From Burkholderiales bacterium (GTDB taxonomy: Bacteria; Pseudomonadota; Gammaproteobacteria; Burkholderiales; Ga0077523), in the NCBI GenBank assembly GCA_019745565.1, contig JAIESW010000005.1, positions 235-64,234 on the forward strand: a stretch of 64,000 nucleotides of DNA, given 5' to 3'. The position numbers and the translations under genes are program-made. Below, piece by piece: positions 5,505 through 25,356 of this stretch. Under the pieces are notes generated by a model. The model saw nothing but the letters and a program-made list of their open reading frames with translations. It was not told the origin of the DNA and made no database searches. Each line of letters starts with the position of its first letter. The stretch's first letter is position 1.

Positions 5505-5846
5505 TCAGGCCTGGCGCGGCAGCGAAGTCGCGCGGCGTGCGCTGTTGCGGCGGGGCGACGAGCGCGAACTGGAAGCCTGCGACTTCAGCGTGCGATAGAG
5601 CGTGGGCCGGGAGCTTTTCAGATAGGAGATGACCTCGAAATCTCCACGGGTCATGCGGCCGATGTCGATCTTGTCGATGTGCACCAGGCGCAGGAGCTGC
5701 TGCACCGGCTTCGGCATGCTGCGGCCGCTCTCGTAACGGGAACCGCCGCTCTGGGTCACGCCGATCATGCCCCAGAACTCCTGCTGGTTGAGGCCGAGCT
5801 TCTGTCGGATGTCGCGCGGATTGGGAATCTTGTCTGAGATCTTCAT
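5505..5846 (-). CDS. Small helix-turn-helix DNA-binding protein (XRE-like) with Ser/Arg-rich tail
   Basis: I take the internal ATG at 5846 of track ORF 5505-6143, because the upstream 99 codons are Arg-rich off-pattern sequence overlapping the MoxJ-like gene. MKISDKIPNPRDIRQKLGLNQQEFWGMIGVTQSGGSRYESGR is a classic HTH. Confidence 0.65.
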   Translation of the reverse strand: MKISDKIPNPRDIRQKLGLNQQEFWGMIGVTQSGGSRYESGRSMPKPVQQLLRLVHIDKIDIGRMTRGDFEVISYLKSSRPTLYRTLKSQASSSRSSPRRNSARRATSLPRQA

Positions 5847-6004
5847 GCGGGAGCCTCGATGCGTGGAGCGGCGCGGGATGCCGTCGCCATTAAACGCTTT
5901 GTCTCCCGTGATCGCCGACAAGTTCCATTGAAATGCAATTCGTCGGCAAGTCGGTGCGCCGCCCCGGGAGTACGAGGGCGGTAGCCTCCGACTTGATCCC
6001 CGCG

Positions 6005-6781
6005 TCATGGTTTGCGGTGCTCGATGCCGTATCTGGCGTAGATCGCCTTCACGGTGCCGTCGGCGATCAATTGCTCGAGAGCCTTGTTGAGTGCCGTCAC
6101 CAGCGCCTCGTCCCCGCGGCGTACGCCCACGGCAAGCGTCCATTCCATGTCGGGCTCGCCGTCGTAGGCGTGCACGAACCGGAGGCTGTGCCCCGGATGG
6201 TTGTGGATGTAGTACTGGATCGTGTTGACCGAGATGGCTGCTGCCGCGAGTTCGCCCTTCTCCAGGTCCTCCAGCATGTCGTCTTCAAAGGCATACGGCG
6301 AAGTCACCCAGCCGCGCTTGTTGAGGATCATGCTCGCCGTGGAGTTCAGCATGACGCCCATCTTCCGGCCCGGGATCACCTTGGCGAAGTCGACGATGTC
6401 GTCCTGGCCCTGCGCGATCGCGAGGGCCACGCCGCCCTTGGCATAGGGCATCGACAGTTTGACCTTGGAGTCGTCCTCGAGGCCCTGGACGATGAAGTCC
6501 ATCTTGAGGTCGCAGTCGACCACGCGCGCCCGATAGGTCGGAATGATCCACTTCGCCTCGAACCCCACGCCCAGTTGCCTGGCGATGGCCTGGCCCAGAT
6601 CCACCTGGAATCCGTGCACGTCACCGGAGCGCTTGGCGTAGGGCAACGCGTCCGGGTTGGCGCAGATCGACAGGATGTTGCGCTCCTTGATTTCGTGCAG
6701 AGGGCGCGCGAGGGACAGGCCGCTCGCGCACAGAAGGGCGCTCGCTGCTGCGAGCGCCAGGAGCCTCGCGACCGGCCTCAC
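6005..6781 (-). CDS. Quinoprotein-dehydrogenase-associated periplasmic solute-binding protein (MoxJ/XoxJ-like, SBP family 3)
   Basis: 258 aa with a signal peptide (LLALAAASALLCASG). SBP_bac_3-like body. GTG start overlaps the cytochrome stop as GTGA. Sits last in a PQQ-DH / cyt c / MoxJ order, as in xoxFGJ. Confidence 0.75.
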   Translation of the reverse strand: MRPVARLLALAAASALLCASGLSLARPLHEIKERNILSICANPDALPYAKRSGDVHGFQVDLGQAIARQLGVGFEAKWIIPTYRARVVDCDLKMDFIVQGLEDDSKVKLSMPYAKGGVALAIAQGQDDIVDFAKVIPGRKMGVMLNSTASMILNKRGWVTSPYAFEDDMLEDLEKGELAAAAISVNTIQYYIHNHPGHSLRFVHAYDGEPDMEWTLAVGVRRGDEALVTALNKALEQLIADGTVKAIYARYGIEHRKP

Positions 6782-7258: not shown

Positions 7259-8992
7259 TCAATCCAGGGCGAACACCTTCAGGATGCCGCCGTCGGTCGG
7301 CATGCTCGAGTAGGGCTCGCCCCACAGGTCGCCGTAACCGTCGGTCACGAGGCTGCCCTTGCCCACTTCCACGGCGACGTACTGCTTGCCCTTCGCCATG
7401 TAGGTGATGATGCCGCCGTCGTGCAGGTTGCCGTTGTTGTGGCGCCACAGCACTTTGCCGGTGCTCGCGTCGACCGCGGACAGGTGGCCGTCGGCTTCCG
7501 GGATGAACAGCAAATTGCCGCCCGTGGACAGCAGTGAGCCGTGCGGGATGCCGTTCTTGAAGTCCATCGCCCACTTCACCTTGCCGGTGATCGGATCACG
7601 CGCACGCACGTGGCCCCAGGCCTTGTCGCTGCCCGGACCGTGCATGGTGAAGTTGGCACCGATGTTGAGCTGAGCCATCGGCTCCAGCACCGGGGTCGTC
7701 TTCACGATCTCGAGATCCATGCACCACTCGTAGCCCACGCGATAGTACAGACCGGTCTTCGGGTTGTAGGTACCCGCGTTCCAGCTGTAGCCGCCGGCGA
7801 TGGCCGGGCACAGGTTGGTGTGCTTGCCCTCGACCATGTCGCGGCGGCCGATCAGCTCGCCGGTCTTGGGATCGACACCCTTCACGAAGTTGATGTTGTC
7901 CACGCCGGCGTAGACGTTCTGCACCTTGCCGCCGCGGTCGTACACGAACACGTGGCCGCCCTTGTTCGGGTGCACCACGTACTTCTTGCCGTCGCGCTCG
8001 AGGAACACGAACTCACCCATGGACGAGTCGAAGTCCCACGCGTCGTGCGGCAGTTCCTGGTGGTAGTTCTTGAGCTCGCCCGTATCCGGGTTGAGCAGGA
8101 TCACCGCTGTCGTGTACAGGTTGGTGCCGGGCCGAGGTCCCTTCGTCTGCCATTCGGGGCCAGCCCAGTCGTACAGCGGCGCCGGATTGGCCGTGCCCCA
8201 CCAGACCGTGTCGGTTTCCGGATCGTAGGCACCCGCCATCCAGCCGCCGCCGCCACCGGTCTTCCACGAGTCGCCACCCCAGGTGTCCCGACGATCCGAA
8301 GGCGTACCTTCGTTGCCGCCGGAGGTGTTGAACGTCCAGACCAGTTGTCCGCTCTTGGCTTCGACGCCGAAGATCGGGCCGCGGCCGGGCCATTCGCCGC
8401 CTTGAGCGCCGATGATGACCTTGTCCTTCACGAACAGGGGCGCACCGGTGAAGCCCACGGTGAGTTTCTTCGAGTCGACCAGCTTGGTCTCCCAGTTGAG
8501 CTTGCCGGTCTTCATGTCGACGGCGACGAGCTTGCCGTCGAGCGTGCCCATGTAGACGTTGCCGTTGCCGAGCGCGACACCGCGGTTGTAGGGCGAGTGG
8601 GTCTGCTTCGCGACCAGGTCCTCGTCGAGCTTCTGCTTGTAGATCCACAGCACGGCGCCGGTGGCACCGTCCAGCGCGTAGAGCTGGTTGTAGGCGCTGG
8701 TGTAGTACAGCACGCCGTCGGCGGCGAGCGGGAAGCTCTGCAGGCCGCGGGTGGCGCGGGAAGGCATGTGCGACCACGCTTCCTTCAGGCCCTTCACGTT
8801 CTTGCTGTTGATCTGGTCGAGCGCACTGTAGTGCCACGACTTGAACGAACCGTGGTAGGTGGGCCAGTTGGCCGGATCGGCCTTCAGGATGCTCTCGTGC
8901 GTGACGTCGGCGCTGGCCGTTGCAGACCAGACGACGCCGGTGACGGCGGCAAATAGCACGCCCTTCACCGTGAGGCGATTTTCAAGTTTCAT
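7259..8992 (-). CDS. PQQ-dependent dehydrogenase, methanol/ethanol family (soluble, signal peptide)
   Basis: 577 aa. Signal peptide ...WSATASA. Repeated propeller W-motifs (LYALDGATGAVLW, LVAVDMKTGKLNW, LSAVDASTGKVLW), GAQGGEWPGRG, GGGGGWMAGAYDPETD, and PHDAWDFDSS around the catalytic Asp. Confidence 0.9.
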   Translation of the reverse strand: MKLENRLTVKGVLFAAVTGVVWSATASADVTHESILKADPANWPTYHGSFKSWHYSALDQINSKNVKGLKEAWSHMPSRATRGLQSFPLAADGVLYYTSAYNQLYALDGATGAVLWIYKQKLDEDLVAKQTHSPYNRGVALGNGNVYMGTLDGKLVAVDMKTGKLNWETKLVDSKKLTVGFTGAPLFVKDKVIIGAQGGEWPGRGPIFGVEAKSGQLVWTFNTSGGNEGTPSDRRDTWGGDSWKTGGGGGWMAGAYDPETDTVWWGTANPAPLYDWAGPEWQTKGPRPGTNLYTTAVILLNPDTGELKNYHQELPHDAWDFDSSMGEFVFLERDGKKYVVHPNKGGHVFVYDRGGKVQNVYAGVDNINFVKGVDPKTGELIGRRDMVEGKHTNLCPAIAGGYSWNAGTYNPKTGLYYRVGYEWCMDLEIVKTTPVLEPMAQLNIGANFTMHGPGSDKAWGHVRARDPITGKVKWAMDFKNGIPHGSLLSTGGNLLFIPEADGHLSAVDASTGKVLWRHNNGNLHDGGIITYMAKGKQYVAVEVGKGSLVTDGYGDLWGEPYSSMPTDGGILKVFALD

Positions 8993-13150: not shown

Positions 13151-14452
13151 TCAGGCGGGTTGCGCAGCAGCGCTCTGCCGCGCGACGCTGCGCCCGACGA
13201 TGGTCGCCACGATCGAGCCCGTCAGCAGGCAGGCGCCGAGGAAGACGAGGCCGGCCTGGAAGCCGCCCGCATGGTCCTTGAGCCAGCCCACCATGAACGG
13301 GCCGACGAAACCGCCGAGGTTGCCCACGGAATTGATGAAGGCGATACCGCCCGCCGCGGCCACACCGGTCAGATAGGTGGCGGGCATGGCCCAGAACACG
13401 GGTTGCGAGCAATACATGCCGATGGCCGCGAACGTCAGCGCCACCATCGCGAGCACCGGCGACTGGATGAATGCGCTGCTCACCATGCCGACGGCGCCCA
13501 GCGCCAGGGCGCCCGCGCAATGAAATACGCGTTCCTTCGTCTTGTCCGAGTGGCGCGACCACAACACCATGCAGATGGTGGCGATCAGATAGGGAACCGC
13601 CATGATCAGGCCGATGTGGAAGCTGTCGGCAACGCCCATGCCCTTGATGAGCTGGGGCATCCACAGGCTGAGGCCGTAGATGCCGATGGCAAGGGCGGTG
13701 TAGACCACGGCAAACAGCAGCACCTTCGGATGAGCGAGCGTCTGCCAGAGCGTGAGGTGCTTGGTGTCGGTGCGCGACTCGGCCTCGCGATGCAGCTTGT
13801 CGCGCAGGTGCGCTTTCTCGGCGTCGGTGAGCCACGTGGCCTTGTCAGGGCTGTCGGTCACCAGACGCAGGCAAAGGTACGCCAGCAGGAGAGTCGGCAA
13901 GCCCTCGATGATGAACAGCCAGCGCCAGCCGGGAAGCCCCATGGAGCCGTCGAAGTACTTCAGGATCAGGCCGCCCAGCGGAGCGGCGATGGTGTTGTTC
14001 AACGGACTGATGATGATGAACAGCCCGAAGATGCGCCCGCGGTATTCCGCCGGGAACCACAGCGTCAGGTAGTAGATCACCCCGGGGAAGAAGCCCGCCT
14101 CGGCCACGCCGAGCAGGAAGCGGATCACGAAGAAGCTCACGTTGCCGCTGATGAAGCCCATCGCAATCGCGAAGATGCCCCAGGTGACCATGATGCGTGC
14201 GAACCAGAGGCGGGCACCGACCTTGGACAGGATCAGGTTGCTGGGCACTTCACCGAGGAAATAACCGAAGAAGAAGAGTCCGGCACCCCAGCCGTATATG
14301 GTGGCCGTGAACCCAAGCTCGGCGTTCATGGTCAGTGCCGCGAGGCCGACGTTGAGGCGGTCGATGATGCAGATCAGGTACGCAACCAAAAGGAAGGGTA
14401 GAACCCTCCACGCCATCTTGCGTACCAGCGCTCGTTCTTCCGCTGCGTTCAT
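13151..14452 (-). CDS. MFS transporter, anion:cation symporter (ACS) type (tartrate/galactonate/phthalate-permease-like)
   Basis: 433 aa with 12 TM. IDRLNVGLAAL and GWGAGLFFFGYFLGEVPSN motifs are typical of ACS-family MFS carboxylate permeases. Confidence 0.85.
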   Translation of the reverse strand: MNAAEERALVRKMAWRVLPFLLVAYLICIIDRLNVGLAALTMNAELGFTATIYGWGAGLFFFGYFLGEVPSNLILSKVGARLWFARIMVTWGIFAIAMGFISGNVSFFVIRFLLGVAEAGFFPGVIYYLTLWFPAEYRGRIFGLFIIISPLNNTIAAPLGGLILKYFDGSMGLPGWRWLFIIEGLPTLLLAYLCLRLVTDSPDKATWLTDAEKAHLRDKLHREAESRTDTKHLTLWQTLAHPKVLLFAVVYTALAIGIYGLSLWMPQLIKGMGVADSFHIGLIMAVPYLIATICMVLWSRHSDKTKERVFHCAGALALGAVGMVSSAFIQSPVLAMVALTFAAIGMYCSQPVFWAMPATYLTGVAAAGGIAFINSVGNLGGFVGPFMVGWLKDHAGGFQAGLVFLGACLLTGSIVATIVGRSVARQSAAAQPA

Positions 14453-14519
14453 GTCGTCTCTCTCCCCGTCGTGTCGTTTGTTGTCTACCGTGAGGGCTTG
14501 CCCCGAGGCCCTGAGTCAA

Positions 14520-14823
14520 TCATATAACGGCGGGGTGTCGGCGCTCCCGGGCGCTGAGCGGGATGCGCCCCTGGCGGGAAAGTGCGGCACGGTTCTTCGC
14601 GACCTCTTCCCTGCGAGCCGCGAGATACTCGGCGTTGCCGTTTCGGCACTCGGCCTCGGACGTGATCTGCGCATCGAGGGCCCAGATATAGCCGTCCTGT
14701 CGCGTTGCTCGAGGCGTCGTATCCGGAGCGGTCGCGGGCCGCGGTGGGAGACCACTTGCCCAACCGGCAGGCCCCGAACGCTGCGAGCGCCGTACCGGCG
14801 AGGATGTAGAGGAGGGTAGCCAT
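14520..14823 (-). pseudogene. Small lipoprotein-like gene with an apparent +1 frameshift
   Basis: ATG 14823 gives MATLLYILAGTALAAFGAC... (signal/lipobox-like) with high GC3 for about 41 codons. High GC3 then moves to the next frame (DGYIWALDAQITSEAECRNGNAEYLAARREEVAKNRAALSRQGR..., stop 14520). One extra base near 14697 would join the two parts. Confidence 0.3.
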
Positions 14824-14910
14824 TTCGATCGATCGGAAAGCACGTACACTCGCTCCAGGAGGCAAGCGCACGGACACGAGCGGGACCAACACGCCTGACG
14901 GAGGAGCGCC

Positions 14911-15669
14911 ATGCAGAGCCAGTCCAAAGTCGCGATCGTGACCGGCGGAGCCGGCGGGATCGGAGAGGCCGCTGCGCGGGCGATCGCCGCGCGCGGTGTG
15001 CATGTCGTGTTGGCAGATCTGCGTCCCGCGGCTGCGGAGGAGACGGCCGCACGCCTGCGAGCCGAAGGGCTCGATGTCGAGCCGGCGAGCGTGGACGTCG
15101 CCAGCGAGGCGAGTGTGCGCGCCATGGTCGAGGCGGTGCTGAACCGCAGCGGACGCGTCGACATCCTCGTGAACAATGCCGGCGTGGAGAGCTCCAAGCC
15201 GTTCCTTGAGATCGGCCTCGACGAATACGAACGCGTCATGCGCGTGAACACGACCGGCGCCTGGCTCTGCTGCCAGGCGGTCATTCCGGCCATGCTGCGC
15301 CAGGGGAGCGGTTACATCGTGAACGTGACCTCCGTGGCCGGCCAACTCGGCGGCGGATTGCTCGGGACAGTCGCCTATTCGACGTCGAAAGGTGCGGTGA
15401 ACTCGATGACGAAGGCATTGGCGCGCGAGTTCGCCAAGTCCGGCATCCGCGTAAACGCCGTGTCGCCCAGCCTCACGATGACGGACTTCGCCCAACGCCA
15501 GCTCGACCGGCTAGCACCCGGCACCCTGGACCGGGTGATCGCGCGGACACCGATAGGGCGTGTGGGCCAGGCCGAGGAGATCGCTGCCGCCATCGCTTTT
15601 CTGGTTTCCGACGAGGCTTCCTTCGTCGTCGGTCACGTGATGAACGTGGACGGCGGAACGGCGATCTGA
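14911..15669 (+). CDS. SDR-family oxidoreductase (FabG-like)
   Basis: 252 aa. TGGAGGIG cofactor motif, NNAG, and catalytic S...YSTSK. Confidence 0.9.
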   Translation: MQSQSKVAIVTGGAGGIGEAAARAIAARGVHVVLADLRPAAAEETAARLRAEGLDVEPASVDVASEASVRAMVEAVLNRSGRVDILVNNAGVESSKPFLEIGLDEYERVMRVNTTGAWLCCQAVIPAMLRQGSGYIVNVTSVAGQLGGGLLGTVAYSTSKGAVNSMTKALAREFAKSGIRVNAVSPSLTMTDFAQRQLDRLAPGTLDRVIARTPIGRVGQAEEIAAAIAFLVSDEASFVVGHVMNVDGGTAI

Positions 15670-15680
15670 ATCGCGCGCTG

Positions 15681-16448
15681 CTACCGGGCGCCCGACGCGA
15701 GAAAGCCACCGTCGATCGGCAGGGCGATCCCCGTCACGTACGCCGCGGCGTCCGAGGCGAGATAGGCGACGGCAGCGGCGATCTCCTCGGGTGTGCCATA
15801 CCGGTTCATCGGTATCGCGTCGGTGTAGCTCTGCCGGAACTCGTCCGAATGCAGTACCCGCGTCATCGGCGTGTCGACCGGACCGGGTGCCACGGCGTTC
15901 GCGGTGATGCCGTGCTCCGCGAGTTCGACGGCCATCTGGCGCGTGAGGCCGATGACCGCCGCCTTCGAGGTCCCATAGCCGGTCCGGCCCACGCCCACCG
16001 CGCGCATGCCCGCGACCGACGCGATGTTGATGATCCGGCCCCAGCGCTCGCGCATCATGCGCCGTGCACCGTACTGGGCGCACAGGAGCACGCCGGTCAC
16101 GTTGATGGCGAGATGCGCCCGCCAGCTGTCCAGCGGGAAGTCGACGAAGGGGAAGGTCTTCGCGATGCCGGCATTGTTCACCACGATGTCGCAGCGGCCG
16201 CAGCGCCGGTCGATGACGTCGAAGGCCGCCGCCACCGATGCAGGGTCGCCGACGTCGATCCGCAGCGCGGAGGCTTCAAGGCCGGCGCCCGTGAGCGCGT
16301 CGGCCTTCTCCTGCGCCTGCGTCTCGTCGATGTCGCCGATCAGCACATGCATGCCCTGCTGTGCGAGCAGATCCGCGATGGCGGCACCGATGCCCTTGGC
16401 CGCACCGGTAATGAGGGCGACGCGCTTGATTCCGTGTTTCGTTGTCAT
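15681..16448 (-). CDS. SDR-family oxidoreductase (FabG-like), last gene of the RLP/TRAP operon
   Basis: 255 aa. TGAAKGIG, NNAG, and YGTSK. Lies 50 nt downstream of the BKACE gene on the same strand. Confidence 0.9.
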   Translation of the reverse strand: MTTKHGIKRVALITGAAKGIGAAIADLLAQQGMHVLIGDIDETQAQEKADALTGAGLEASALRIDVGDPASVAAAFDVIDRRCGRCDIVVNNAGIAKTFPFVDFPLDSWRAHLAINVTGVLLCAQYGARRMMRERWGRIINIASVAGMRAVGVGRTGYGTSKAAVIGLTRQMAVELAEHGITANAVAPGPVDTPMTRVLHSDEFRQSYTDAIPMNRYGTPEEIAAAVAYLASDAAAYVTGIALPIDGGFLASGAR

Positions 16449-16498
16449 TCTTTTTTCCTACTCATTGCAGATTCCATAGGGCCCTGGCCCCGTTCGAT

Positions 16499-17545
16499 TC
16501 AAGCCGGTGCCAGAGCCTGTCGGATCTCCCGGATGCTCGCCGGCTCCTTGCCGGCGGAGCGGATCACTCGGACGGCTTCTTCCACCAGTTGCACGTTGGT
16601 CCTGGTGGCGCCGAACGGCGCATCCTCCAGCCCTACGCGGATATGGCCGCCGCGCTGGATCGCATACGCCATCAGCGGCGCGATGTTCACATCGAGGCCG
16701 GCGATCATCCAGGGGGCATACGGTGCCTCGTCCGCCAGAAGGCGCAGGAAGGCGTCGAGCGCGTAGGGCTGCGGCGGGAAGCCGAAGCTCAACCCGTCGG
16801 AGAACATGAAGCGGTAGATGCATTGCGGCACCTGCGGGTAGGCGCGCTCCAGCGCCGCCCCCAGACGCACGAAGCCCGGTTCGTAGAGCGCGTAACCGGG
16901 ATGGAAGCGATAGCGCGTCGCGAGTTCCAGGCCGAGGCGGATGTGCGATTCGGGATTTGCATACACGAAGCCCTGCTTGCCGGCGGGGATCTCGTCGAGC
17001 CGCGTGATGTTGGTGGAACCGGGATCGACCACCGCCCACTCCAGCAATCCGCGTTTCGCCAGCGTTTCCGTGTGCGTAAAGCGCTCCTGCGCGGTCATCA
17101 TGTTGGGGGCGTCCACGCTGCCGGCGAAGGGCAGGGTCGGGTAGACGACCACGTCCTCCTTGGCACGGATGCCTTCGATGATGGCCGCGTAGAGATCGGC
17201 ATCGTCCTTCTGCCGCCCGGTCTTCTCGTCGTACGCGTGCACGTGCAGGATTGCAGCGCCGGCCTGCGCACACGCAATGCCCTCTGCCACGATGTCCCGC
17301 ACCGAGATCGGAATCCCCGGCTGGCGATCGCGAGACCACGGACCGTTCAACGACACCTCGAGCCAGGTCTTGCCCGGGGTCTGCACGGGTTTCGTCCGGG
17401 TGGCGTCGCTGCGCCCTACCATCGGCACCGACGCCAGTCCGCCCGCGAGCACCGACGCACCGAGCGCGCGCACGAAGTGCCGGCGGCTCGGCCGCCGGCC
17501 GTCCGGATCGTCATCATCATTCATCGGCATGTGGCAGCGGGTCAT
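16499..17545 (-). CDS. BKACE-family (3-keto-5-aminohexanoate cleavage enzyme-like, DUF849) protein with an N-terminal twin-arginine signal
   Basis: Start chosen at ATG 17545, preceded by AGGAGAGGAAACG. MTRCHMPMNDDDDPDGRRPSRRHFVRALGASVLAGGLASVPMVG is a Tat motif (SRRxFV) plus h-region. BKACE core follows: AGAAILHVHAYD (HxH zinc ligands) and GGHIRVGLEDAP. Confidence 0.85.
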   Translation of the reverse strand: MTRCHMPMNDDDDPDGRRPSRRHFVRALGASVLAGGLASVPMVGRSDATRTKPVQTPGKTWLEVSLNGPWSRDRQPGIPISVRDIVAEGIACAQAGAAILHVHAYDEKTGRQKDDADLYAAIIEGIRAKEDVVVYPTLPFAGSVDAPNMMTAQERFTHTETLAKRGLLEWAVVDPGSTNITRLDEIPAGKQGFVYANPESHIRLGLELATRYRFHPGYALYEPGFVRLGAALERAYPQVPQCIYRFMFSDGLSFGFPPQPYALDAFLRLLADEAPYAPWMIAGLDVNIAPLMAYAIQRGGHIRVGLEDAPFGATRTNVQLVEEAVRVIRSAGKEPASIREIRQALAPA

Positions 17546-17598
17546 CGTTTCCTCTCCTGAAGCGCGGGCGTCCGCGGGTTCGCTCGTTGCACGTCGCA

Positions 17599-18645
17599 TC
17601 ACACCAGCGGCCCGGAATACTTCTCGAGCATCGCCCAGGCCTCGTCACCGAACGTCCCGCGCCACTTCTTGTAGTAGCCCGCCTGGGATATGGCCTTGCG
17701 GAACAGCTCGGGATCGGTGCGGTGGAACTCCAGGCCGAACTTCGTCAGTTCGGTCTCGACGTTCCGGTTGACCTCGACCAGGTCTTCGCGCTCCCGCATC
17801 GCGGCCTCGTTGAAGTTGCGCGCCAGGACTTCCTTCAGATTGTCCGGCAGGGCGGCCCAGACCTTGCCGTTCACCAGGGTGAACTGGCCATCCCACATGT
17901 GGTTGGTGATGGAAATGTACTTCTGCACCTCGTACAGCTTGGCGATCAGGATCAGCGACAGCGGATTCTCCTGGCCGTCGACGATGTGCGTCTGCAACGC
18001 CGAATACACCTCGGCGAAGTTGATCGAAGTCGGTGCCGCGCCCAGATGCTGGAAGAGCGATCCCCACAGCGGGCTCACCGGCACGCGGATCTTGAAGCCC
18101 TTCAGGTCCTCCGGCGTCAGGATCGGCTTGGTGCTGCTGGTGATCTGCCGGAAGCCGATGTCCCACAGCTTGTCGAAGGCGTGCAGGTTGACCCGCGCGA
18201 TCACGCCGCGCAGATATGCGCCGAGATCGCCGTCGAGGGCCGCCCAGACCTGGGAATAGTCCTTGAAGGCGAAGCCGACCCCGTACAGTGCCGTCTGCTT
18301 CACCATGGTGGACAGCACGTTGGTGCCCGACAGCACGAACATCTCCAGGGCACCGCTGCGAAGCTGCGACAGCATGTCGGAGTCGCCGCCCAGCTGGTTG
18401 TTGGGAAACATCCGTACTTCCAGCTGCCCGTTCGATTCCTCCAGGATCTTCGGCACGATCTCCTTGACCCGCACGTTGATCGGGTGGGTCATGGGCAGAT
18501 TGCCCGCGAACTTGAACCGGTACTTCGGCCGTGCCGCCTGGCTGCGACTGCTGAGGATGCCGAACAGCGGCAGCGTGGCACCGGCAACCAATGCTCGACG
18601 ACGGTTCGCGCCCTGAGGTTGAGGCTTTGCGCTGTCGGTCGTCAT
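17599..18645 (-). CDS. dctP: TRAP transporter substrate-binding protein (DctP family)
   Basis: This is the last 348 codons of track ORF 17599-20466. ATG 18645 overlaps the permease stop as ATGA. MTTDSAKPQPQGANRRRALVAGATLPLFG is a signal (RR-type). The DctP body includes FKFAGNLPMTHP...QLEVRMFPNNQLG...ALQTHIVDGQENP. Confidence 0.9.
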   Translation of the reverse strand: MTTDSAKPQPQGANRRRALVAGATLPLFGILSSRSQAARPKYRFKFAGNLPMTHPINVRVKEIVPKILEESNGQLEVRMFPNNQLGGDSDMLSQLRSGALEMFVLSGTNVLSTMVKQTALYGVGFAFKDYSQVWAALDGDLGAYLRGVIARVNLHAFDKLWDIGFRQITSSTKPILTPEDLKGFKIRVPVSPLWGSLFQHLGAAPTSINFAEVYSALQTHIVDGQENPLSLILIAKLYEVQKYISITNHMWDGQFTLVNGKVWAALPDNLKEVLARNFNEAAMREREDLVEVNRNVETELTKFGLEFHRTDPELFRKAISQAGYYKKWRGTFGDEAWAMLEKYSGPLV

Positions 18646-20537
18646 TTCTTCAGGAAGCCGATCGAGATCCACGGCACCGTCGCCACGACGATCAGGCCCA
18701 CCGTCAGGGCCAGCAGGTAGCCGAGGATGGGGCGTATGCCCTCGTTCGGGTTGGTGCGGCCGATCGCACACGCGGCGTAGTAGCCGACGCCGAAGGGCGG
18801 CGCGAACAGGCCGATGCCCATCGCGAGGATCACGATCATGGCGTAGTGCACCTGGTGTACACCCATCTGCTTGGCGATGGGGAACAGCAGCGGACCGAAC
18901 AGCACGATCGCGGGTATGCCCTCCAGCACGCTGCCCAGGATGACGAAGACCACGATCGACACCGCGATGAAGCCGACCCTGCCGCCCGGAATCGCGGCCA
19001 TCGCTTCGGCGAGGCTCTGCGAGAAACCCGACTGCGTGAGCGACCACGCCATGCCGGTGGCCGCACCGATGATGAGCAGGATGGCGCCGGACAGCGCCGC
19101 GGTCTCCACCAGCATCGGCAGCAGGCGGCGCCAGTTGAACTGGCGGTAGATCAGCAGCCCTGCGATGACCGAGTAGGCGATGCCGATGGTCGAGACTTCG
19201 GTCGCGGTCGCGATGCCCTCCACCACGGCGGCACGGATCACGAACGGCAGGGCGATGGCGGGTGCGGCGATCAGCAGCGTGCGTCCGATCTGTTTCCCGG
19301 TCGCGCGCTGCACGTGCGACAGATCCTCGTTCCGATAGCGCCACCACACGAGCGCGCACAGGGTGAGCCCGAGCACCACCGCCGGCAGCATGCCGCCGGT
19401 AAACAGGGAGGCGATCGACACACCGGTCACCGAGCCTATCGTGAGCAGCACGAGGCTCGGCGGAATGGTTTCGGTCTGTGCACCGGTTGCGGAGAGCAGG
19501 GCCACGAGATCGCCTTTCTTCGCGCCGCGCCGCTCCATTTCCGGAAACAGGACCGGCGCTACCGCCGCCATGTCCGCGGCCTTCGACCCGGAGATGCCCG
19601 AAACCAGGTACATCGAACCCACCAGCACGTAGTGCAGGCCACCGCGCACGTGGCCCAACAGCGAACCGAGGAAAGTCACCATCGCGCGCGCCATCCCGGT
19701 CATCTCGATCAACAGCCCGAGGAAGACGAACAACGGCACCGAAAGCAGGATCAGGTGGGACATGCCCTCGTCCATGCGTCCCACGATCGCGGTCATCGGA
19801 ATCAACGTCGTGATGGCTAGGTAGCCGTACGTCGCAAGCCCGAAGGCGAAGGCGATCGGCACGCCGGCAAAGACGTTGAGCGCAACGATGCCGACGAAGA
19901 AGACGAGCAGGTTCTCGTTGTCGAGCTCGAACAGGACGGGTTGCAGAAGCAGGAGAATGCCGATGACGAAGCCGATGGCCGCCAACGCACCGAGGATGTG
20001 GCGCCAGCTGCCCGTTTCCAGAAGGCGCATCAATGCGATGAACAGCATGAGTGCGCTGCCGACCGGCAACGCGGCGGCACGCCAGGCATTGGTGATCTCC
20101 AGGGCCGGCGTGGTGATCACCACCTCGTCGTGCGCGAACTCGTAGGCCGGGTAGACGATGAGTGCCAGGAAGGTGAGCGCCGCGGCGATGGCCAGCACCT
20201 CGAGGAACGCTCGCACCTGGGGAGAAACCATGCTCACGACGGCGGTCATACGCATGTGCTCGCCGCGCCGCAGCGCGACGACGGCACCCAGCATCGCCAT
20301 CCACAGGAACAGGATCGAGGCCAGCTCGTCGGACCAGAGGATCGGTCGATGGAAGACGTAGCGGGACACCACGCCCGCGAACAGGATCACCACGTCGGCC
20401 GCCACCAGGAGCGCAGCGGCATACTCGACCGCGGTTCCGACCACCGTCTCGAGAGACACCAGCCATTTGGGCACGCCGGCTGCGGGCGGCGCAGGAGCTG
20501 CGCCGGGGTCGGCAAACTCGGAATGGGGGTTCCTCAT
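18642..20537 (-). CDS. TRAP transporter fused small/large permease (DctQ-DctM)
   Basis: 631 aa. The N-terminal roughly 170 aa has a 4-TM DctQ-like part (RPILWSDELASILFLWMAMLG), followed by a 12-TM DctM-like part. Confidence 0.9.
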   Translation of the reverse strand: MRNPHSEFADPGAAPAPPAAGVPKWLVSLETVVGTAVEYAAALLVAADVVILFAGVVSRYVFHRPILWSDELASILFLWMAMLGAVVALRRGEHMRMTAVVSMVSPQVRAFLEVLAIAAALTFLALIVYPAYEFAHDEVVITTPALEITNAWRAAALPVGSALMLFIALMRLLETGSWRHILGALAAIGFVIGILLLLQPVLFELDNENLLVFFVGIVALNVFAGVPIAFAFGLATYGYLAITTLIPMTAIVGRMDEGMSHLILLSVPLFVFLGLLIEMTGMARAMVTFLGSLLGHVRGGLHYVLVGSMYLVSGISGSKAADMAAVAPVLFPEMERRGAKKGDLVALLSATGAQTETIPPSLVLLTIGSVTGVSIASLFTGGMLPAVVLGLTLCALVWWRYRNEDLSHVQRATGKQIGRTLLIAAPAIALPFVIRAAVVEGIATATEVSTIGIAYSVIAGLLIYRQFNWRRLLPMLVETAALSGAILLIIGAATGMAWSLTQSGFSQSLAEAMAAIPGGRVGFIAVSIVVFVILGSVLEGIPAIVLFGPLLFPIAKQMGVHQVHYAMIVILAMGIGLFAPPFGVGYYAACAIGRTNPNEGIRPILGYLLALTVGLIVVATVPWISIGFLKK

Positions 20538-20746
20538 CTCAGCGAGTCGAACACCTTATGTGGATGCTCTGGTAACTCGGCCTTCCGACGATGATTCTCG
20601 CGCCCGATGGGACGCATCACTCCTTCCGTGCTCAGCACGAACGGTCACGATGGGCGAAAGATGCGGGTGACCGATGGCAGACAGTTCACATCTCAAGGCC
20701 CACGCGTGTCAAGGAGAAGTGCGCACTGCACGCTCGATGCTCGGCT

Positions 20747-22111
20747 TCAGCGATCACCTCGCGCTGCACCAAAATAATCCGCCTTGCCCATCTGACCCCC
20801 TTTCAGCGCGACCTCCAGGCCGTCGAGCTCGGGGTCTTCCGAGTAACCACGGCACAGCGGCGCGCCGGGTGTCAGCTCGGCGAGCATCTCGAGGCCGTAG
20901 AGGCCGAGTTCCTGGGTTGCATAGCTCGACGTGTCGCCGCCCGCCACGACGACGCGGCGCAGACTGGTGCGGGCCAGCAGATCGCGGGCGATCCGGCCCA
21001 GCGCGCTGCCGAGCATCCTGGCGGTATTCGCCGAGCCCGCTGTCAGCGTTTCACGTGTCGCCTGGATGCTGGGGTCATCCGGACCGGCCGCGGTGTAGAT
21101 CACGACGCTGCGTCCCGCGGATAGCGAAGCCAGGGCCCGCTCGAACACATCCTTCAATGGCGCGTCCGTGGCCTGCGGCCGGCACAGCGCCTCGGTCGGC
21201 GCACGCAAGCAGTCGAAGCCGTGCGCCGACGCCCACTGGATCTGCGTCGCCGTCATCGGGGAAGCGCTGCCGGATACGACGATCAGTTGCTTCACCGGCA
21301 CCACGGGCGGGAACGTCGCCCGCGCCGCAGCGATCACGCCGCTCGCGCGCCAGTGTGCGGCGAGCGCGTACTCGACACCGGACGAGCCGATGGCGAAGTG
21401 CTGCGCGTGCCGGGCCTGCTGCCATATCAGCCGACCGACAGTGCCGAGGCTCCGATCGTCGGCCACGTCGTAGAGCAGGAGGTCGGGACGGTCGGCCAGC
21501 TTCTGTGCGTGACGCGCATCGACCTCCGCGGCCGGGCCGTCGAGTTCAGGCAGGCTCATCAACCCGATGCTGGCTCGGGTCTGATGTGAAAGGTGGATGC
21601 GCAGATCGGCCTCGTGCATGGGCGTCACCGGGTGACGCGACATGGTCGGATGCCGGTCCAGCCGGAAAACCTCGGTGCCGGCCGCGGCGAAATGATTCCC
21701 GAATACGGTGTACCGCCGCAGCGGCGGAGCGCCCGCGGCCACCGAGATCGTCGCGCCCGGATTCAGTTTGCGGCGCACCAGGTCGGCGACGTGTCCGATG
21801 CTGCCGATCTCGGGCGCCGAATCGAAAGTGGAGCAGACCTTGTAGTGCGTGAGCGGCGCCTTCAACGCCCATAGCTCGCGCAGCACCGGGTCGAGCTGCT
21901 CGTCCATTTCAGCCGGGGACATCGCTCGACTGGTACCGGCCACACCGATGCAACGCAGGTCGGGAAACCTCGCGGCGACGAACGCCGGTTCCGGTGGCTC
22001 GAGGAACAGTACCGTCCGCAATCCGGAGACGGCCAACGCCTCCATCGCATCGGTGGAGCCGGTGAAATCGTCGCCGTAGAAGGCGAGCAGCAGTTCGGAG
22101 CCGGAAGCCAT
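20747..22111 (-). CDS. Four-carbon acid-sugar kinase family protein (DUF1537; OtnK/DtnK/OiaK-like)
   Basis: Start at ATG 22111 overlaps the RLP stop by 1 nt (TGATG). MASGSELLLAFYGDDFTGSTDAMEAL is the family N-terminal motif, and VVAGGDTSSYATQELG is the C-terminal nucleotide-binding part. The longer track ORF (to 22636) is out of frame with the RLP gene. Confidence 0.85.
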   Translation of the reverse strand: MASGSELLLAFYGDDFTGSTDAMEALAVSGLRTVLFLEPPEPAFVAARFPDLRCIGVAGTSRAMSPAEMDEQLDPVLRELWALKAPLTHYKVCSTFDSAPEIGSIGHVADLVRRKLNPGATISVAAGAPPLRRYTVFGNHFAAAGTEVFRLDRHPTMSRHPVTPMHEADLRIHLSHQTRASIGLMSLPELDGPAAEVDARHAQKLADRPDLLLYDVADDRSLGTVGRLIWQQARHAQHFAIGSSGVEYALAAHWRASGVIAAARATFPPVVPVKQLIVVSGSASPMTATQIQWASAHGFDCLRAPTEALCRPQATDAPLKDVFERALASLSAGRSVVIYTAAGPDDPSIQATRETLTAGSANTARMLGSALGRIARDLLARTSLRRVVVAGGDTSSYATQELGLYGLEMLAELTPGAPLCRGYSEDPELDGLEVALKGGQMGKADYFGAARGDR

Positions 22112-23379
22112 CAGCCGCGGCCTCCGAACTTGTCGATCGCAGCGCGCAACTCCGGATGGGTTTGCGCATATGCCTCCAGTGTTGCCCCGGCCAGCGCGGC
22201 TTGCCAGCCTTGCTGCATGCTGAGTACGCCGGCGGCGGTGCCGCCCGGATGCGCGATGATGCCGCCGCCGGCCAGGTGCACGACGTCGATGGTTCTGGTG
22301 GCGGCATAGATCGGCAGCGCCGAGCCGGCCCACTGCGCGGAGGAAATGGCGGGCATGACCCGGTAGTCCCCGTACAGCGGCGTGAGGCAGTCCTTGATGG
22401 AGCGCCCCACCTCGTCGTTGCTTTCGTAGAACTTGCCGTTGAAACCGCCCACGTGCAGGTGGTCCACACCGGCCAGCCGGCACAGTTTCTGGTAGGCCGT
22501 GAATCCGATGCCCAGCAGCGGGTGACGCGACATCGCACCGAAGTTCGCGCGGTGGCCGTGGATCGGCAGCTCGCAATGGCGGCGCACGTGAGCGAGCGCG
22601 GCGAAGCCGACGCTGTTGATGTTGATCATCACGCACGTGCCGCCGGCTTTGCGGATCAGGTCGTGGCTGCGCAGCATGTGATCCACGTCGCCGGTGATGT
22701 TGAAGGCGTACATGGCCTTCTTGCCGGTGGCGTCGGCGACCCGCTGGATCTCGGCCATGACCGAGGCGACCCGCTCGGCCAGGGAGAAATAGGGCGGGTC
22801 GGCCTGCAGCTCGTCATCCTTGATGAAGTCGAGTCCGGCCGAAGCGAGGTCGCGGACGAGCTTGCACAGCGCTTCCTTGGACAGGCCGATGCTGGGTTTG
22901 ACGATCGTCCCGATCAGCGGGCGGCCCGACACCTGTGCGAGCTTGCGCGTCCCGTCAATGCCGAACGCCGGGCCCGGATAGCGTTCGGCGAACGCGGGAG
23001 GCAATTCGAGGTCTTCCAGCCGCAACCCCGACACCTCCTGCAGTTCGTAGAGGTTGCCGGCGACCGTGGAGAGCAGACTCGGCAACGACGGGCCGAAATT
23101 GTGCAGCGGAAACGAGATGGTTATGCGGCCGCGCCGATACTGGACGTTGCCGCCGGCGGAGCGGGGGGGGTTGCTGCCCGGCAGGCTCGGAGCGGCAACC
23201 GCTTCGAGAGCTTCGATACGCAGGACCTGTGCCCCGTAGCGCTGCTTCAGCTCGTTGGTCTCTCCGGGGATCGCGACGAAGGTGCCGCTCGACTGCTCCC
23301 CGGCGATCACGGCGGCAGCATGATCGAGCGGGTGCGGTGTTTCGATGAGGTAAGTCGCTAGGACACTGTCCTGAACCAT
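22111..23379 (-). CDS. RuBisCO-like protein (form IV RLP, large-subunit homologue)
   Basis: 422 aa. GTIVKPSIGLS (compare KPKLGLS), GLDFIKDDE (carbamate Lys plus metal Asp/Glu), IHGHRA, GVDHLHVGGFNGKF, and HLAGGGIIAHPGG. No small-subunit or prk gene is nearby. Confidence 0.9.
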   Translation of the reverse strand: MVQDSVLATYLIETPHPLDHAAAVIAGEQSSGTFVAIPGETNELKQRYGAQVLRIEALEAVAAPSLPGSNPPRSAGGNVQYRRGRITISFPLHNFGPSLPSLLSTVAGNLYELQEVSGLRLEDLELPPAFAERYPGPAFGIDGTRKLAQVSGRPLIGTIVKPSIGLSKEALCKLVRDLASAGLDFIKDDELQADPPYFSLAERVASVMAEIQRVADATGKKAMYAFNITGDVDHMLRSHDLIRKAGGTCVMININSVGFAALAHVRRHCELPIHGHRANFGAMSRHPLLGIGFTAYQKLCRLAGVDHLHVGGFNGKFYESNDEVGRSIKDCLTPLYGDYRVMPAISSAQWAGSALPIYAATRTIDVVHLAGGGIIAHPGGTAAGVLSMQQGWQAALAGATLEAYAQTHPELRAAIDKFGGRG

Positions 23380-23454
23380 GTTGCCTCCTGTTTCATGGTC
23401 TTGTTGTGGGATTGTGCAGCGATTTTTCGCGTGACCCCGCAGGTTGCCGAAGGA

Positions 23455-23748
23455 TCAGGGTCGTTTGCCGGTCCGAACCACCCACCAGTTGCCGCAGAGC
23501 ATCAACATGTGCGCCAGGACTTCCGTGACGAACAGCAGCAGGAACAGCGCGCCACCCCAGTACCCGACCACCATGAGGAGCTTCGGTTCGATGAAGCACG
23601 CCAGGGCCACGGCCAGCAGGATGCCGACCGCTACGACGCGACCGAGAATCCCGATGCCCTTGCCGCGCGCGAACAGCGACTGACCGAACCCCCTGCCGCT
23701 CGTGGACCAGTCGGACAGCAGGAAGAAACGCTTGAGACCGCCGATCAT
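23455..23748 (-). CDS. Hypothetical small membrane protein (2 TM)
   Basis: 97 aa with high GC3 in this frame. TM segments VVAVGILLAVALACFI and GGALFLLLFVTEVLAHMLML. No family recognised. Confidence 0.6.
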   Translation of the reverse strand: MIGGLKRFFLLSDWSTSGRGFGQSLFARGKGIGILGRVVAVGILLAVALACFIEPKLLMVVGYWGGALFLLLFVTEVLAHMLMLCGNWWVVRTGKRP

Positions 23749-23835
23749 GGGAGTCTGGCGTGGGAGAGTGCTCGCGTGCGCAGGAAACGAAGCCGATAGT
23801 AACGCGCGCAGGGATACGCAGCGCCGGGACCGATG

Positions 23836-24120
23836 TCACGCGGCGATGAACTCCCGGGCTTCGTCGAGAGTATCGAAGCGGTGGCACCGGTGGGGCGACG
23901 GACCCAGATTGTCGACCGCAGCGATCAACGCGTGAACCACCGGATGGTTCCCGACGCACGCGATCTTCGCCTTCGGATTCCGGAGCGGGGCAATGCTGGC
24001 CCGGACGGCCATGAACTCGATGTCGATCTGAGACACGATGACTTCGGTGGCGGCGTTGAAGTCATGAATGATGAAGCGCAGATCATCGAGTCGCGCGCTG
24101 CTCTGCAGTTCGACAACCAT
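23836..24120 (-). CDS. Hypothetical small cytoplasmic protein (possibly STAS-like fold)
   Basis: 94 aa. GC3 clearly favours this frame over the antisense 140-aa ORF. No confident family assignment. Confidence 0.6.
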   Translation of the reverse strand: MVVELQSSARLDDLRFIIHDFNAATEVIVSQIDIEFMAVRASIAPLRNPKAKIACVGNHPVVHALIAAVDNLGPSPHRCHRFDTLDEAREFIAA

Positions 24121-24190
24121 GGTGGATCTCTAGGCATAGAAGAACGCAATGCACGATCCCATGATCGCTATCGCACCGAAGAGGCTACGG

Positions 24191-24664
24191 CTAGAGCTTC
24201 GTCCAGTCTTCGAGCACGCAACCTGTATTCCACCGCTCGGGCGAACTGTCGCTGACGACCGCGGTGCGAATCTGATCCTGTCGCGACACCAGTCCCACGT
24301 CGATCTCGTAGGGACCGCCCGAACCGGAACCGTAGTACCGAATGCGGATGAGCGCCGAGTTGTCGCCCCCGTATCGGCCTTCACGGTCCCACGGGGTTTG
24401 CGCAACGACCGCGGTTTCGTAGCGCGCGGTGCCGTGGTAGCAGTGCAGTATGGTCTGCGCCAGATCAGCGAAGGTCTCGGGCATCCGCGTCTCACTGGAG
24501 TCCGGCGCGAACGGCGAGACGGCGCTGTGGTTTGCCGATGCCTCGGATTGGGCCGCGACGAAGCGGATCGCCTGGAAGATCTCCTTGACCGTCAGGAACT
24601 CGAGCTGAGCCGACGCTGAATGGGACAACGCGACGAGCATGAGAATGAACCAGGCGTATCGCAC
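24191..24664 (-). CDS. Hypothetical secreted protein
   Basis: 157 aa. Signal peptide MRYAWFILMLVALSHSASA-QLE. GC3-rich frame. No family recognised. Confidence 0.65.
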   Translation of the reverse strand: MRYAWFILMLVALSHSASAQLEFLTVKEIFQAIRFVAAQSEASANHSAVSPFAPDSSETRMPETFADLAQTILHCYHGTARYETAVVAQTPWDREGRYGGDNSALIRIRYYGSGSGGPYEIDVGLVSRQDQIRTAVVSDSSPERWNTGCVLEDWTKL

Positions 24665-24770
24665 GTCTTCGGCTGCCGGATCCCGGGGGGCGGGATCGAG
24701 TTCAGAGGAAAGAGGAAATGACGGCCATCGTCCGTGTCAAACAAGGAGGCCGCACTCGTATCGGACACAT

Positions 24771-25019
24771 CTATTGATTGCGACGCATCGAGTCATCCGC
24801 TAACCGCTGTCGTGCGCGTTCCCGCAACGACAGCAGAAGAGTCTGGGTTACCGACGCAACTTCCAACAGCTCCTGCAACGGCATATGGGCCACCTCGTCG
24901 ATCCCGGTCAGCCCTGCTTCGACCAACGCATGGGCAACCTGCTCATCGATGTCGAGAGACCGCATGAACATCTCGACGGCGGCTTGATCGGGATCATCCA
25001 TGTCGACCACCAAGTTCAC
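24771..25019 (-). CDS. Free-standing NusA C-terminal acidic-repeat (AR, double helix-hairpin-helix) domain protein
   Basis: 82 aa. SLDIDEQVAHALVEAGLTGIDEVAHMPLQELLEVASVTQTLLLSLRERARQRLA aligns by eye with E. coli NusA AR1 ([53 protein letters not shown]). Confidence 0.65.
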   Translation of the reverse strand: MNLVVDMDDPDQAAVEMFMRSLDIDEQVAHALVEAGLTGIDEVAHMPLQELLEVASVTQTLLLSLRERARQRLADDSMRRNQ

Positions 25020-25356
25020 GGGTCACCTGCGCTTTGGATATGGCACCTCACGTCGGCCTGACAGTATGAACACACGATCCGGCTCAGGCGCTGCAGCATC
25101 CGGGCGGAGGACGCCTGCGCGGACTGGGTTCGACGAAGGGTGTTGTATCACGGCTGCAGGCATCGGCGCGACCCCGGCGCGACGGAGGTGAAAGCCCCCG
25201 GGACTCCTATGCCGGCCCTGGGGGAGAAGCCCTGGCTGCAGCTGTATCGGAGAACGCCGCATGTCGAACCCGCTGGATCGTCTCGGCAAAGGCCGCTCGA
25301 ATAGGGTCACCACGATGAGGGCCGTCGCGCTCCGGGACGATACAATTAGCGGGCGC

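Follow-up and report, generated by a model that had tools for sequence, protein, structure and literature searches.

Can an enzyme of the DUF849 (BKACE) family work outside the cytoplasm and, if so, what could it do there? To our knowledge, all characterized BKACE members are cytoplasmic and need acetyl-coenzyme A (acetyl-CoA), which is unavailable in the periplasm. The question is raised by a 348-residue protein encoded in a 64,000-nt window, by which we mean the whole stretch of DNA that was analyzed, with 66% GC, on contig JAIESW010000005.1 from a Burkholderiales bacterium (Ga0077523 lineage). An earlier note on this DNA had described the protein as a BKACE carrying a twin-arginine translocation (Tat) signal. 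The answer toward which we lean is that it is a zinc-binding DUF849 enzyme with a TIM-barrel fold, in which a Tat signal was gained in one clade, and that it is exported and performs CoA-independent chemistry in the periplasm. Both the fold and the export route are known, and it is their combination that has not previously been described.

The N-Terminal Extension Looks Like a Conserved Tat Signal

The gene of interest starts at an ATG (position 17545), ends at a TGA stop (16499-16501) and occupies a minus-strand frame that is open from 17602 to 16499. This ATG is the first in the frame to have a ribosome-binding site, and the encoded protein begins with MTRCHMPMNDDDDPDGRRPSRRHFVRALGASVLAGGLASVPMVGRSDA; the Shine-Dalgarno-supported start and the N-terminal sequence given in the earlier note are thus matched exactly. 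NCBI nr holds an identical 348-residue protein, which means that the same start has been picked by independent gene callers. The Pfam BKACE profile (PF05853) matches residues 59-345 (E = 3.8e-57, 194 bits for a cut-off of 24.8) over profile positions 1-272 of 274, and therefore the approximately 55 N-terminal residues are extra, as had been proposed. In the AlphaFold2 model, the barrel is confident, with a mean predicted local distance difference test score (pLDDT) of 87.6, and residues 1-55 are disordered, with a pLDDT below 52 for residues 1-50. That this extension is coding in the frame of the enzyme can be seen from its GC content at third codon positions (GC3), which is 0.85, similar to that of the core (0.84) and above that of the 57 nt upstream of the ATG (0.58).

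The extension displays the parts of a Tat signal that had been pointed out in the earlier note, namely an S-R-R-x-F-V consensus, a hydrophobic region (h-region) and a terminal region of small residues. After a polar n-region, the motif S-R-R-H-F-V-R fits the Tat consensus S/T-R-R-x-F-L-K. The h-region consists of 18 uncharged residues, with a mean Kyte-Doolittle value of 1.57 when computed on the near-identical homologues P0001 and P0002 that have the same h-region, and it ends in the small residues S-D-A. By the -3/-1 small-residue rule, signal peptidase I probably cuts after this S-D-A, at residue 48. The NCBIfam model TIGR01409 (TAT_signal_seq) matches residues 20-48 of the window protein with 19.2 bits (curated cut-off, 16.7), and the protein has no match to a Pfam Tat-signal family at E <= 0.01. 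When a TATFIND-like rule was applied to this GC-rich window, it fired on 3 of 159 six-frame open reading frames (ORFs) in its strict form and on 11 of 159 in its loose form, so that a single motif match is weak evidence when taken alone.

It is the comparison with homologues that is decisive. Twin arginines together with at least 13 uncharged residues are found in 56 of 59 homologues with a long N terminus, and the remaining three are gene calls that start within the hydrophobic stretch. When the 57 sequences of the signal-bearing clade defined below are aligned, R21 and R22 are the sole invariant columns upstream of T56, and pairs of sequences share on average 41% identity over the extension, compared with 86% over the mature part. 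The signal consensus of the clade is a polar n-region, then x-R-R-[RN]-F-[LIVM] (RRRF at the motif itself), an uncharged stretch rich in Gly, Ala, Pro and Leu, and finally small residues (ALA, AAA, ARA), often followed by basic ones. As judged from the alignment, this pattern of conservation is that of selection on a Tat signal, unlike what would be expected for an untranslated leader or a structural extension. The extension therefore looks like a genuine, conserved and translated Tat-type signal, and export is predicted. The counterproposal in the earlier note, that the start might lie downstream of an unconserved region, does not agree with these data, since the upstream region keeps its Tat-type signal across the 57-sequence clade and the signal-less sisters start with their own codons. 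A lipoprotein signal was also considered and rejected: the Cys that is frequent in the clade (AACAP) lies where the h-region begins rather than where it ends, and the signal of the window protein has no Cys.

The Signal Is Confined to One Clade Among the Relatives Examined

When 5.8 billion proteins were searched, two sets of relatives came out: about 60 clusters that are 72-98% identical to the window protein and 335-361 residues long, and a second set with 64-75% identity and about 295 residues, in which the proteins start a few residues before ...KTWLEVSLNGPWSRD. The extension is thus indeed additional, since the sisters of 64-75% identity begin at the core, those that truly lack a signal starting at ...KTWLEVSLNG with their own start codons. 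Neighbor-joining trees built from the mature domains group the signal-bearing proteins together, in a single clade of 57 sequences. The nearest signal-less proteins, P0042 and P0051, are 85-87% identical and are placed at the base of the clade or just outside it, depending on the distance measure. P0042 (positions 1323-2210 of locus L089), the mature domain of which is 87% identical, has its own Shine-Dalgarno sequence and ATG at the core, preceded by a non-coding spacer, and provides a natural example of the putatively exported enzyme without its signal. The P0042 gene comes after the same 131-residue gene of unknown function as in the cluster described below. Because mature domains this similar exist with and without the signal, the clade and its neighbors represent a natural relocation experiment.

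We found the signal in no other lineage within the two surveys made. Among the best 150 representatives of a 50%-identity clustering of 1.84 billion proteins, in which a signal-less protein stands for the Tat clade, the signal occurs only in two fragments belonging to the same clade (P0170 and P0184). In a scan of 185,579 species genomes of GTDB, the best 80 of 558 relatives include only two with the signal, from betaproteobacterial metagenome-assembled genomes (L004 and L005); other apparent N-terminal matches in these relatives were rejected as open GC-rich frames upstream of a normal start. The survey of DUF849 homologues for RR signals that the earlier note had suggested has thus been run, and it confines the signal to one clade among the relatives examined. 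This distribution suggests that the signal was gained by the ancestor of one shallow betaproteobacterial clade. Its carriers form a small set of soil betaproteobacteria, represented almost exclusively by metagenome sequences. A literature search found no paper combining BKACE and twin-arginine, and the one paper that combines DUF849 and periplasmic is unrelated, so that within this search the statement in the earlier note that no described periplasmic DUF849 member was known to its author stands.

The Zinc Site Is Kept and the Predicted BKACE Base Is Replaced by Alanine

Foldseek searches with the AlphaFold2 model matched 5ZMU, 3LOT, 9HNF, 3C6C and 2Y7D with a probability of 1.00. The closest solved protein is CESH[D] (5ZMU), which was found with E = 6e-19 using a single sequence and 5e-28 using a profile, and which shows a target-normalized TM-score of 0.87-0.89 and 27-28% identity. 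The BKACEs 2Y7D, 9HNF and 8RIP are close behind as structural matches. Kce of Cloacimonas acidaminovorans (2Y7D) and PdKce/BKACE15 (8RIP, 9HNF) display the same TIM barrel as the window enzyme, with target-normalized TM-scores of 0.80-0.87, at an identity of only 21-25%.

As in Kce and PdKce, the window enzyme has a predicted zinc triad, consisting of a His-x-His motif and the Glu of GLED, with an Arg, an Asp and a Tyr near the metal. The triad residues H101, H103 and E307, which correspond to Kce H46, H48 and E230, are kept and are invariant in our alignments, and R303 and D308 correspond to Kce R226 and D231 (for the zinc triad, R226 and D231, we use what we take to be the numbering of Bellinzoni et al. 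2011). Y221, invariant within the Tat clade, occupies the position of Kce Tyr145, the equivalent of PdKce Tyr173 (PMC12871164). Two residues before this conserved Tyr, however, in an A-L-Y-E motif, an invariant Ala (A219) replaces the Glu that is E143 in Kce and E171 in PdKce, which was identified as the catalytic base of PdKce by structure and mutagenesis (PMC11961710). The window enzyme also differs from Kce in having no Glu at the position of Kce E14. Hence, while the fold and the zinc motifs announced in the earlier note are present (HVH at residues 101-103 and RVGLED at residues 303-308), its "normal BKACE core" is not normal, since the catalytic Glu has given way to an invariant Ala.

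The NCBIfam equivalog models are in line with this difference. On the window protein, those for Kce, 3-oxoadipate:acetyl-CoA acetyltransferase and 3,5-dioxohexanoate transferase score 98, 70 and 68 bits (cut-offs of 382, 350 and 430), that is, at about a quarter or less of what is required, and all 57 clade members are likewise below cut-off. The replacement extends well beyond the clade. Of 63 full-length branch representatives (27-61% identical, from P0121-P0270) aligned with MAFFT, 62 have no Glu at the base position, where they carry Ala (in 35), Ser, Gly or Val. They share an invariant Glu in strand 1 and an Asp equivalent to D115 of CESH[D], and some have CESH-like ENE...GLGD motifs.

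CESH[D] itself belongs to the same branch without the Glu143 equivalent. This protein of Bordetella sp. BK-52 is a metal-dependent (Zn, Ca or Mg), one-step and CoA-independent cis-epoxysuccinate hydrolase with the Kce fold, in which R11, E14 (a metal ligand), D115 and E190 are key residues and D115 is catalytic (PMC6429283). It shows that the DUF849 fold can bind an oxygen-rich acid via the metal and hydrolyze it without CoA. In common with the window enzyme, it has a Glu at the start of strand 1 and the invariant Asp, which is D174 in the window enzyme. The third metal ligand is E14 in CESH[D] and, by prediction, the Kce-type E307 in the window enzyme. The construct in the PDB aligns from native residue 3 of CESH[D], and no signal peptide is seen there. 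An epoxide hydrolase of the CESH[D] type was rejected as an identity for the window enzyme, since three of the four key residues differ (R11, E14 and E190 are S65, G68 and F246) and only D115 is matched.

A comparable set of proteins has been recognized before. Group G7 of the ASMC classification comprises DUF849 proteins lacking at least one catalytic residue; in the NetSyn preprint it is annotated as non-BKACE, no keto acid having been transformed by it in the 2014 screen (bioRxiv 10.1101/2023.02.15.528638). By alignment, the Ala at the base position makes the window protein fit the definition of this group, which goes back to Bastard et al. 2014. The genomic contexts given for G7 in the same preprint (quinone oxidoreductase, taurine dioxygenase, major facilitator superfamily transporter, serine hydrolase) differ from the context of the window gene, and no export signal is mentioned there.

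Taken together, the alignments predict that the whole branch, CESH[D] included, lacks the Glu that deprotonates acetyl-CoA; in terms of function, BKACE would be a misnomer for the window enzyme. Since the branch lacks this residue and contains a CoA-free hydrolase, the window enzyme is predicted to be CoA-independent, which is one of the two possibilities that had been raised for it and is supported by the invariant Ala and by the best match in the PDB. The branch probably never used acetyl-CoA, and the paradox of a periplasmic enzyme depending on this cofactor then largely dissolves; with CoA-free members such as CESH[D] and group G7, a periplasmic DUF849 protein is less surprising than at first sight. 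Because the base is missing and the protein is probably exported, the BKACE label implies an acetyl-CoA chemistry that it almost certainly cannot perform. This matters beyond one gene. A large part of DUF849 (group G7) is without the BKACE catalytic site, and a periplasmic clade constrains the chemistry to reactions using no CoA, no NAD(P) and no ATP. Fewer reactions then come into question for the branch as a whole, in which the cytoplasmic sisters share this active site.

A Conserved Catabolic Cluster Surrounds the Enzyme Gene

In the window, the gene is part of a minus-strand series in the order RuBisCO-like protein (RLP), DUF1537 kinase, DctQM, DctP, enzyme and short-chain dehydrogenase (SDR), with DctQM and DctP forming a tripartite ATP-independent periplasmic (TRAP) transporter (Table 1). 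The stop and start codons of the RLP and kinase genes overlap (ATGA at 22111), and only 210 nt (20538-20746) lie between the kinase gene and dctQM. The best NCBIfam matches of the kinase and the RLP are the D-apionate enzymes OiaK (3-oxo-isoapionate kinase) and OiaX (RuBisCO-like 3-oxo-isoapionate-4-phosphate decarboxylase), both well below the equivalog cut-offs. The window RLP and kinase are probably paralogues of these two enzymes, with another 3-oxo acid as their substrate. The DUF849 gene marks a conserved, unassigned catabolic cluster built around enzymes that fall below the cut-offs of their apionate counterparts, and the constraint that it sets on the chemistry is useful for assigning a function to this RLP/DUF1537 pathway too. 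We know of no DUF849 enzyme in the published apiose pathways. The RR-type signal that had been noticed on the adjacent DctP is confirmed, since its twin arginines are invariant in 31 homologues. The closest solved relative of this DctP is 4OAN (R. palustris RPB_2686), with 52% identity and, for a DctP model in Foldseek, a target-normalized TM-score of 0.96. Like many BKACE genes, the enzyme gene is paired with an SDR gene, a pairing known as a catabolic module, for example in deoxyribonate oxidation followed by cleavage (bioRxiv 10.1101/205583).

To see how stable this arrangement is, we read nine genomic contexts of the Tat clade: the window, L001, L002, L084, L085, L086, L090, L091 and L092. 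A cluster of the RLP/DUF1537 type is present in eight of them, L090 being an isolated copy. The shared cluster comprises genes for a LysR regulator, the RLP, the kinase, a KARI_N/PGDH_C-type dehydrogenase, a 131-residue protein of unknown function, an IlvD/Edd dehydratase, the TRAP transporter, the SDR, the enzyme, an RraA-like protein and a divergent SDR, with an alpha/beta hydrolase sometimes found between the TRAP and SDR genes. Export signals are restricted, within these clusters, to DctP and the enzyme. The window holds a reduced version consisting of the RLP, the kinase, the TRAP transporter and two SDR genes. The KARI_N/PGDH_C-type dehydrogenase, the 131-residue gene and the IlvD/Edd dehydratase, which the window cluster has lost, and also the RraA-like gene, are absent from it and have no copy elsewhere in the window; in L084, L085 and L091 the first three of these, with the 131-residue protein showing no Pfam match, are found at the position between the kinase and dctQM. 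The LysR regulator of the L084 cluster has no match anywhere in the window either.

Variants of the cluster were also seen. In L002, one ORF of 880 residues (13319-15961) encodes the RLP and the DUF1537 kinase as a fusion protein. In L001, the dehydratase gene is in two pieces, the kinase gene is shorter, and a 66-residue ORF (7767-7967) immediately preceding the gene for the Tat-signal enzyme is a C-terminal remnant of DctP, which indicates that the TRAP genes have been deleted from this cluster. The contexts of the signal-less sisters vary, with a sugar-acid operon encoding IlvD, HpcH and TRAP proteins in L003, alcohol dehydrogenase and TctC genes in L087 and hydantoinase genes in L088.

Where Does the Enzyme Act?

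Although we lean toward export and CoA-independent chemistry in the periplasm, a number of observations weigh against it. In an NCBIfam scan, TIGR01409, which is a short model, reaches E <= 0.01 in 3 of the 57 clade members, so that clade-wide support for the signal comes from the rule-based test and from conservation. The assignment of the missing base comes from sequence alignment, not from a superposed structure. When compared with the cytoplasmic sisters, the mature domain shows no compartment-specific changes: there are 7 clade-specific positions, none of them obviously adaptive, and a search for extra cysteines that might be a compartment adaptation found C242, which is also present in signal-less relatives. 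TRAP genes occur in five of the nine Tat-clade contexts; they are absent in three, and L001 has only the dctP remnant. A strict partnership between enzyme and transporter is therefore unsupported, and the answer to whether such genes always sit next to a TRAP or ABC binding protein, as the earlier note had asked, is no. All the other enzymes of the operon are cytoplasmic, which makes a periplasmic step in mid-pathway awkward. Lastly, the ligand density of 4OAN, which is reported to have been modelled as (S)-2-acetolactate, a 2-hydroxy-3-oxo acid, is a tentative pointer to the substrate. As a compound, 2-acetolactate is a reported TRAP ligand (PMC5812351).

Some of these observations are just what would be expected if the protein stayed in the cytoplasm, the RR extension being a conserved tail with another role or an unused signal, and the enzyme, like its sisters without a signal, working alongside the SDR, the dehydratase and the RraA-like enzyme. 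The scarcity of TIGR01409 matches, the missing compartment-specific substitutions, the lack of signals on all other cluster enzymes, and the fact that relatives 85-87% identical work without a signal all speak for it. What it leaves hard to explain is a pattern of the kind produced by selection on Tat signals, in which the RR is invariant, F or L is found at +2, an uncharged Gly/Ala/Pro/Leu-rich stretch ends in small residues and the rest varies; moreover the adjacent DctP, which is undoubtedly periplasmic, has the same type of signal. We consider this alternative unlikely, yet serious enough to be kept in mind.

A second alternative accepts a translated and conserved extension that is exported, but sees in it a signal anchor that stays uncleaved and tethers the enzyme to the inner membrane on its periplasmic side, possibly beside the TRAP membrane subunit. 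Instead of a classic A-x-A site, the window protein has S-D-A, basic residues occur near the predicted cleavage region in several clade members, and the segment that follows the h-region, VETPGKTW, is conserved and would be compatible with a tether. On the other hand, most clade members have A-x-A-type sites (ALA, AAA, ARA) at the end of the h-region, which is short (13-26 uncharged residues), rich in Gly, Ala and Pro and of moderate hydropathy (mean Kyte-Doolittle values of 1.0-1.9). Short and moderately hydrophobic h-regions of this composition are typical of cleaved Tat signals rather than of stable anchors, and we regard an anchor as improbable.

The two remaining alternatives can be set aside with much greater confidence. 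That the start is mis-called, with translation beginning at a downstream codon such as GTG 17386 (V54) and the RR region being an untranslated leader, could be argued from the in-frame GTG/ATG codons at 17473, 17452, 17428, 17422 and 17386, from database gene calls of 295-323 residues for some clade members and from the false-positive rate of the motif rule in a GC-rich window (2-7%); it is hardly credible given the GC3 values of the extension and of the region upstream of the ATG, the strong Shine-Dalgarno sequence ahead of ATG 17545 and the lack of one at the internal candidates, a frame that is open and an RR that is invariant across 57 sequences differing at 59% of extension positions, and the separate Shine-Dalgarno sequence, ATG and non-coding upstream region of the true signal-less relatives. 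Equally implausible is an exported but canonical acetyl-CoA-dependent beta-keto acid cleavage enzyme, for which the Pfam domain, the conserved zinc triad, R303, D308 and Y221 and the pairing with an SDR gene would speak, in view of the alanine at the base position, the low equivalog scores, the inactivity on keto acids described above for DUF849 proteins lacking a catalytic residue and the cofactor being unavailable in the periplasm.

What Might a Periplasmic DUF849 Enzyme Do?

If the enzyme is exported and CoA-independent, as we favor, it would fold and take up zinc in the cytoplasm, and the Tat system would then export the folded protein, with cleavage probably after residue 48. The mature enzyme would act in the periplasm without acetyl-CoA. 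The weakest steps in this scheme are those that follow: the zinc may chelate an oxygen-rich acid (a 2-hydroxy-3-oxo acid) or its lactone or epoxide precursor, and hydrolysis or isomerization may yield the form that DctP binds, to be degraded in the cytoplasm by the kinase and the RLP. Accordingly, we hold the idea that the enzyme conditions the substrate of the TRAP transporter more loosely than we hold export itself. The matches of kinase and RLP to OiaK and OiaX point to a 2-hydroxy-3-oxo (beta-keto) acid as a pathway intermediate, as would the acetolactate reported for the DctP homologue 4OAN, and by analogy with Kce, which binds a beta-keto acid, and CESH[D], which binds tartrate, the DUF849 metal site appears suited to chelating oxygen-rich acids. 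Plausible CoA-free reactions are the hydrolysis of a lactone or epoxide precursor and the isomerization or epimerization of a keto acid.

Periplasmic enzymes that condition a substrate are known to be encoded with uptake systems, as for the sialic acid mutarotase NanM with SiaPQM and for a periplasmic gluconolactonase. The logic proposed here would be the same, an exported enzyme making the form that a binding protein recognizes. NanM and the gluconolactonase have unrelated folds and Sec signals, however, and the role suggested for the window enzyme comes from gene order only.

A bolder version of this scheme, attractive but doubtful in our view, is that the clade represents the first periplasmic branch of DUF849, with a reaction new for the fold (a zinc-assisted, CoA-free hydrolysis or an alpha-ketol/isomerase-type rearrangement) that makes or stereo-corrects an unstable 2-hydroxy-3-oxo acid, which a Tat-exported TRAP binding protein would capture at once and feed into a new RLP/DUF1537-kinase pathway. 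If this were true, the first chemical step of the pathway would have been deliberately placed in the periplasm.

Other Features of the Window

The features of the enzyme gene and of its neighbors are listed in Table 1. A scan of 15400-23800 for promoters and terminators gave nothing above the expectation from shuffled sequence, and the region upstream of the RLP gene (23380-25200) contains short ORFs only.

Table 1. Position of the enzyme gene, its predicted functional elements and the neighboring genes in the 64,000-nt window
Feature	Position	Strand	Basis or remark
Tat-signal DUF849/BKACE-family coding sequence, 348 residues	16499..17545	-	ORF and start-codon analysis; Pfam PF05853; identical protein in NCBI nr; coordinates include the stop codon
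Shine-Dalgarno sequence AGGAGAGG	17551..17558	-	5 nt upstream of ATG 17545; direct reading of the sequence
Predicted Tat signal peptide, residues 1-48	17402..17545	-	TIGR01409; GC3; AlphaFold2 pLDDT
Twin-arginine motif S-R-R-H-F-V-R, residues 20-26	17468..17488	-	RR codons at 17480-17485; RR invariant in 57/57 clade members
Hydrophobic h-region ALGASVLAGGLASVPMVG	17414..17467	-	18 uncharged residues; mean Kyte-Doolittle ~1.6
DUF849/BKACE TIM-barrel domain, residues 59-345	16511..17371	-	Pfam; AlphaFold2 model; Foldseek
H101-V-H103, two of three predicted zinc ligands (Kce H46, H48)	17237..17245	-	Alignment to 2Y7D; invariant
D174 of the invariant VVDPGS motif, at the position of catalytic D115 in CESH[D]	17024..17026	-	Alignment to 5ZMU and to the D115A mutant 5ZMY
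A219-L-Y221-E222, with A219 at the position of Kce E143/PdKce E171 and Y221 at that of Kce Y145	16880..16891	-	Ungapped hidden Markov model alignment to 2Y7D and 3C6C
R303-V-G-L-E307-D308, with third predicted zinc ligand E307 (Kce E230), R303 and D308 (Kce R226, D231)	16622..16639	-	Alignment to 2Y7D; invariant
DctP, TRAP solute-binding protein with its own RR signal	17599..18645	-	Pfam; NCBIfam; 53 nt upstream of the enzyme gene
Fused DctQM, TRAP membrane subunit	18642..20537	-	Pfam DctQ, DctM
DUF1537 acid-sugar kinase, OiaK-like	20747..22111	-	Pfam SBD_N, NBD_C; best NCBIfam match OiaK, 509 bits (cut-off 700)
RuBisCO-like protein, OiaX-like	22111..23379	-	Pfam RuBisCO_large; best NCBIfam match OiaX, 441 bits (cut-off 700)
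SDR without signal peptide	15681..16448	-	Pfam; 80% identical to the SDR of L084; 50 nt downstream of the enzyme gene
Second, divergent SDR	14911..15669	+	Pfam; 77% identical to SDR2 of L084
Major facilitator superfamily transporter	13151-14452		

Farther away, an ORF at 5505-6143 on the minus strand has an RsaL-like helix-turn-helix domain (E = 3e-25). About 8 kb from the cluster, also on the minus strand, a gene at 7259-8992 encodes a dehydrogenase of 577 residues dependent on pyrroloquinoline quinone, with a beta-propeller fold; dehydrogenases using this cofactor are normally periplasmic.

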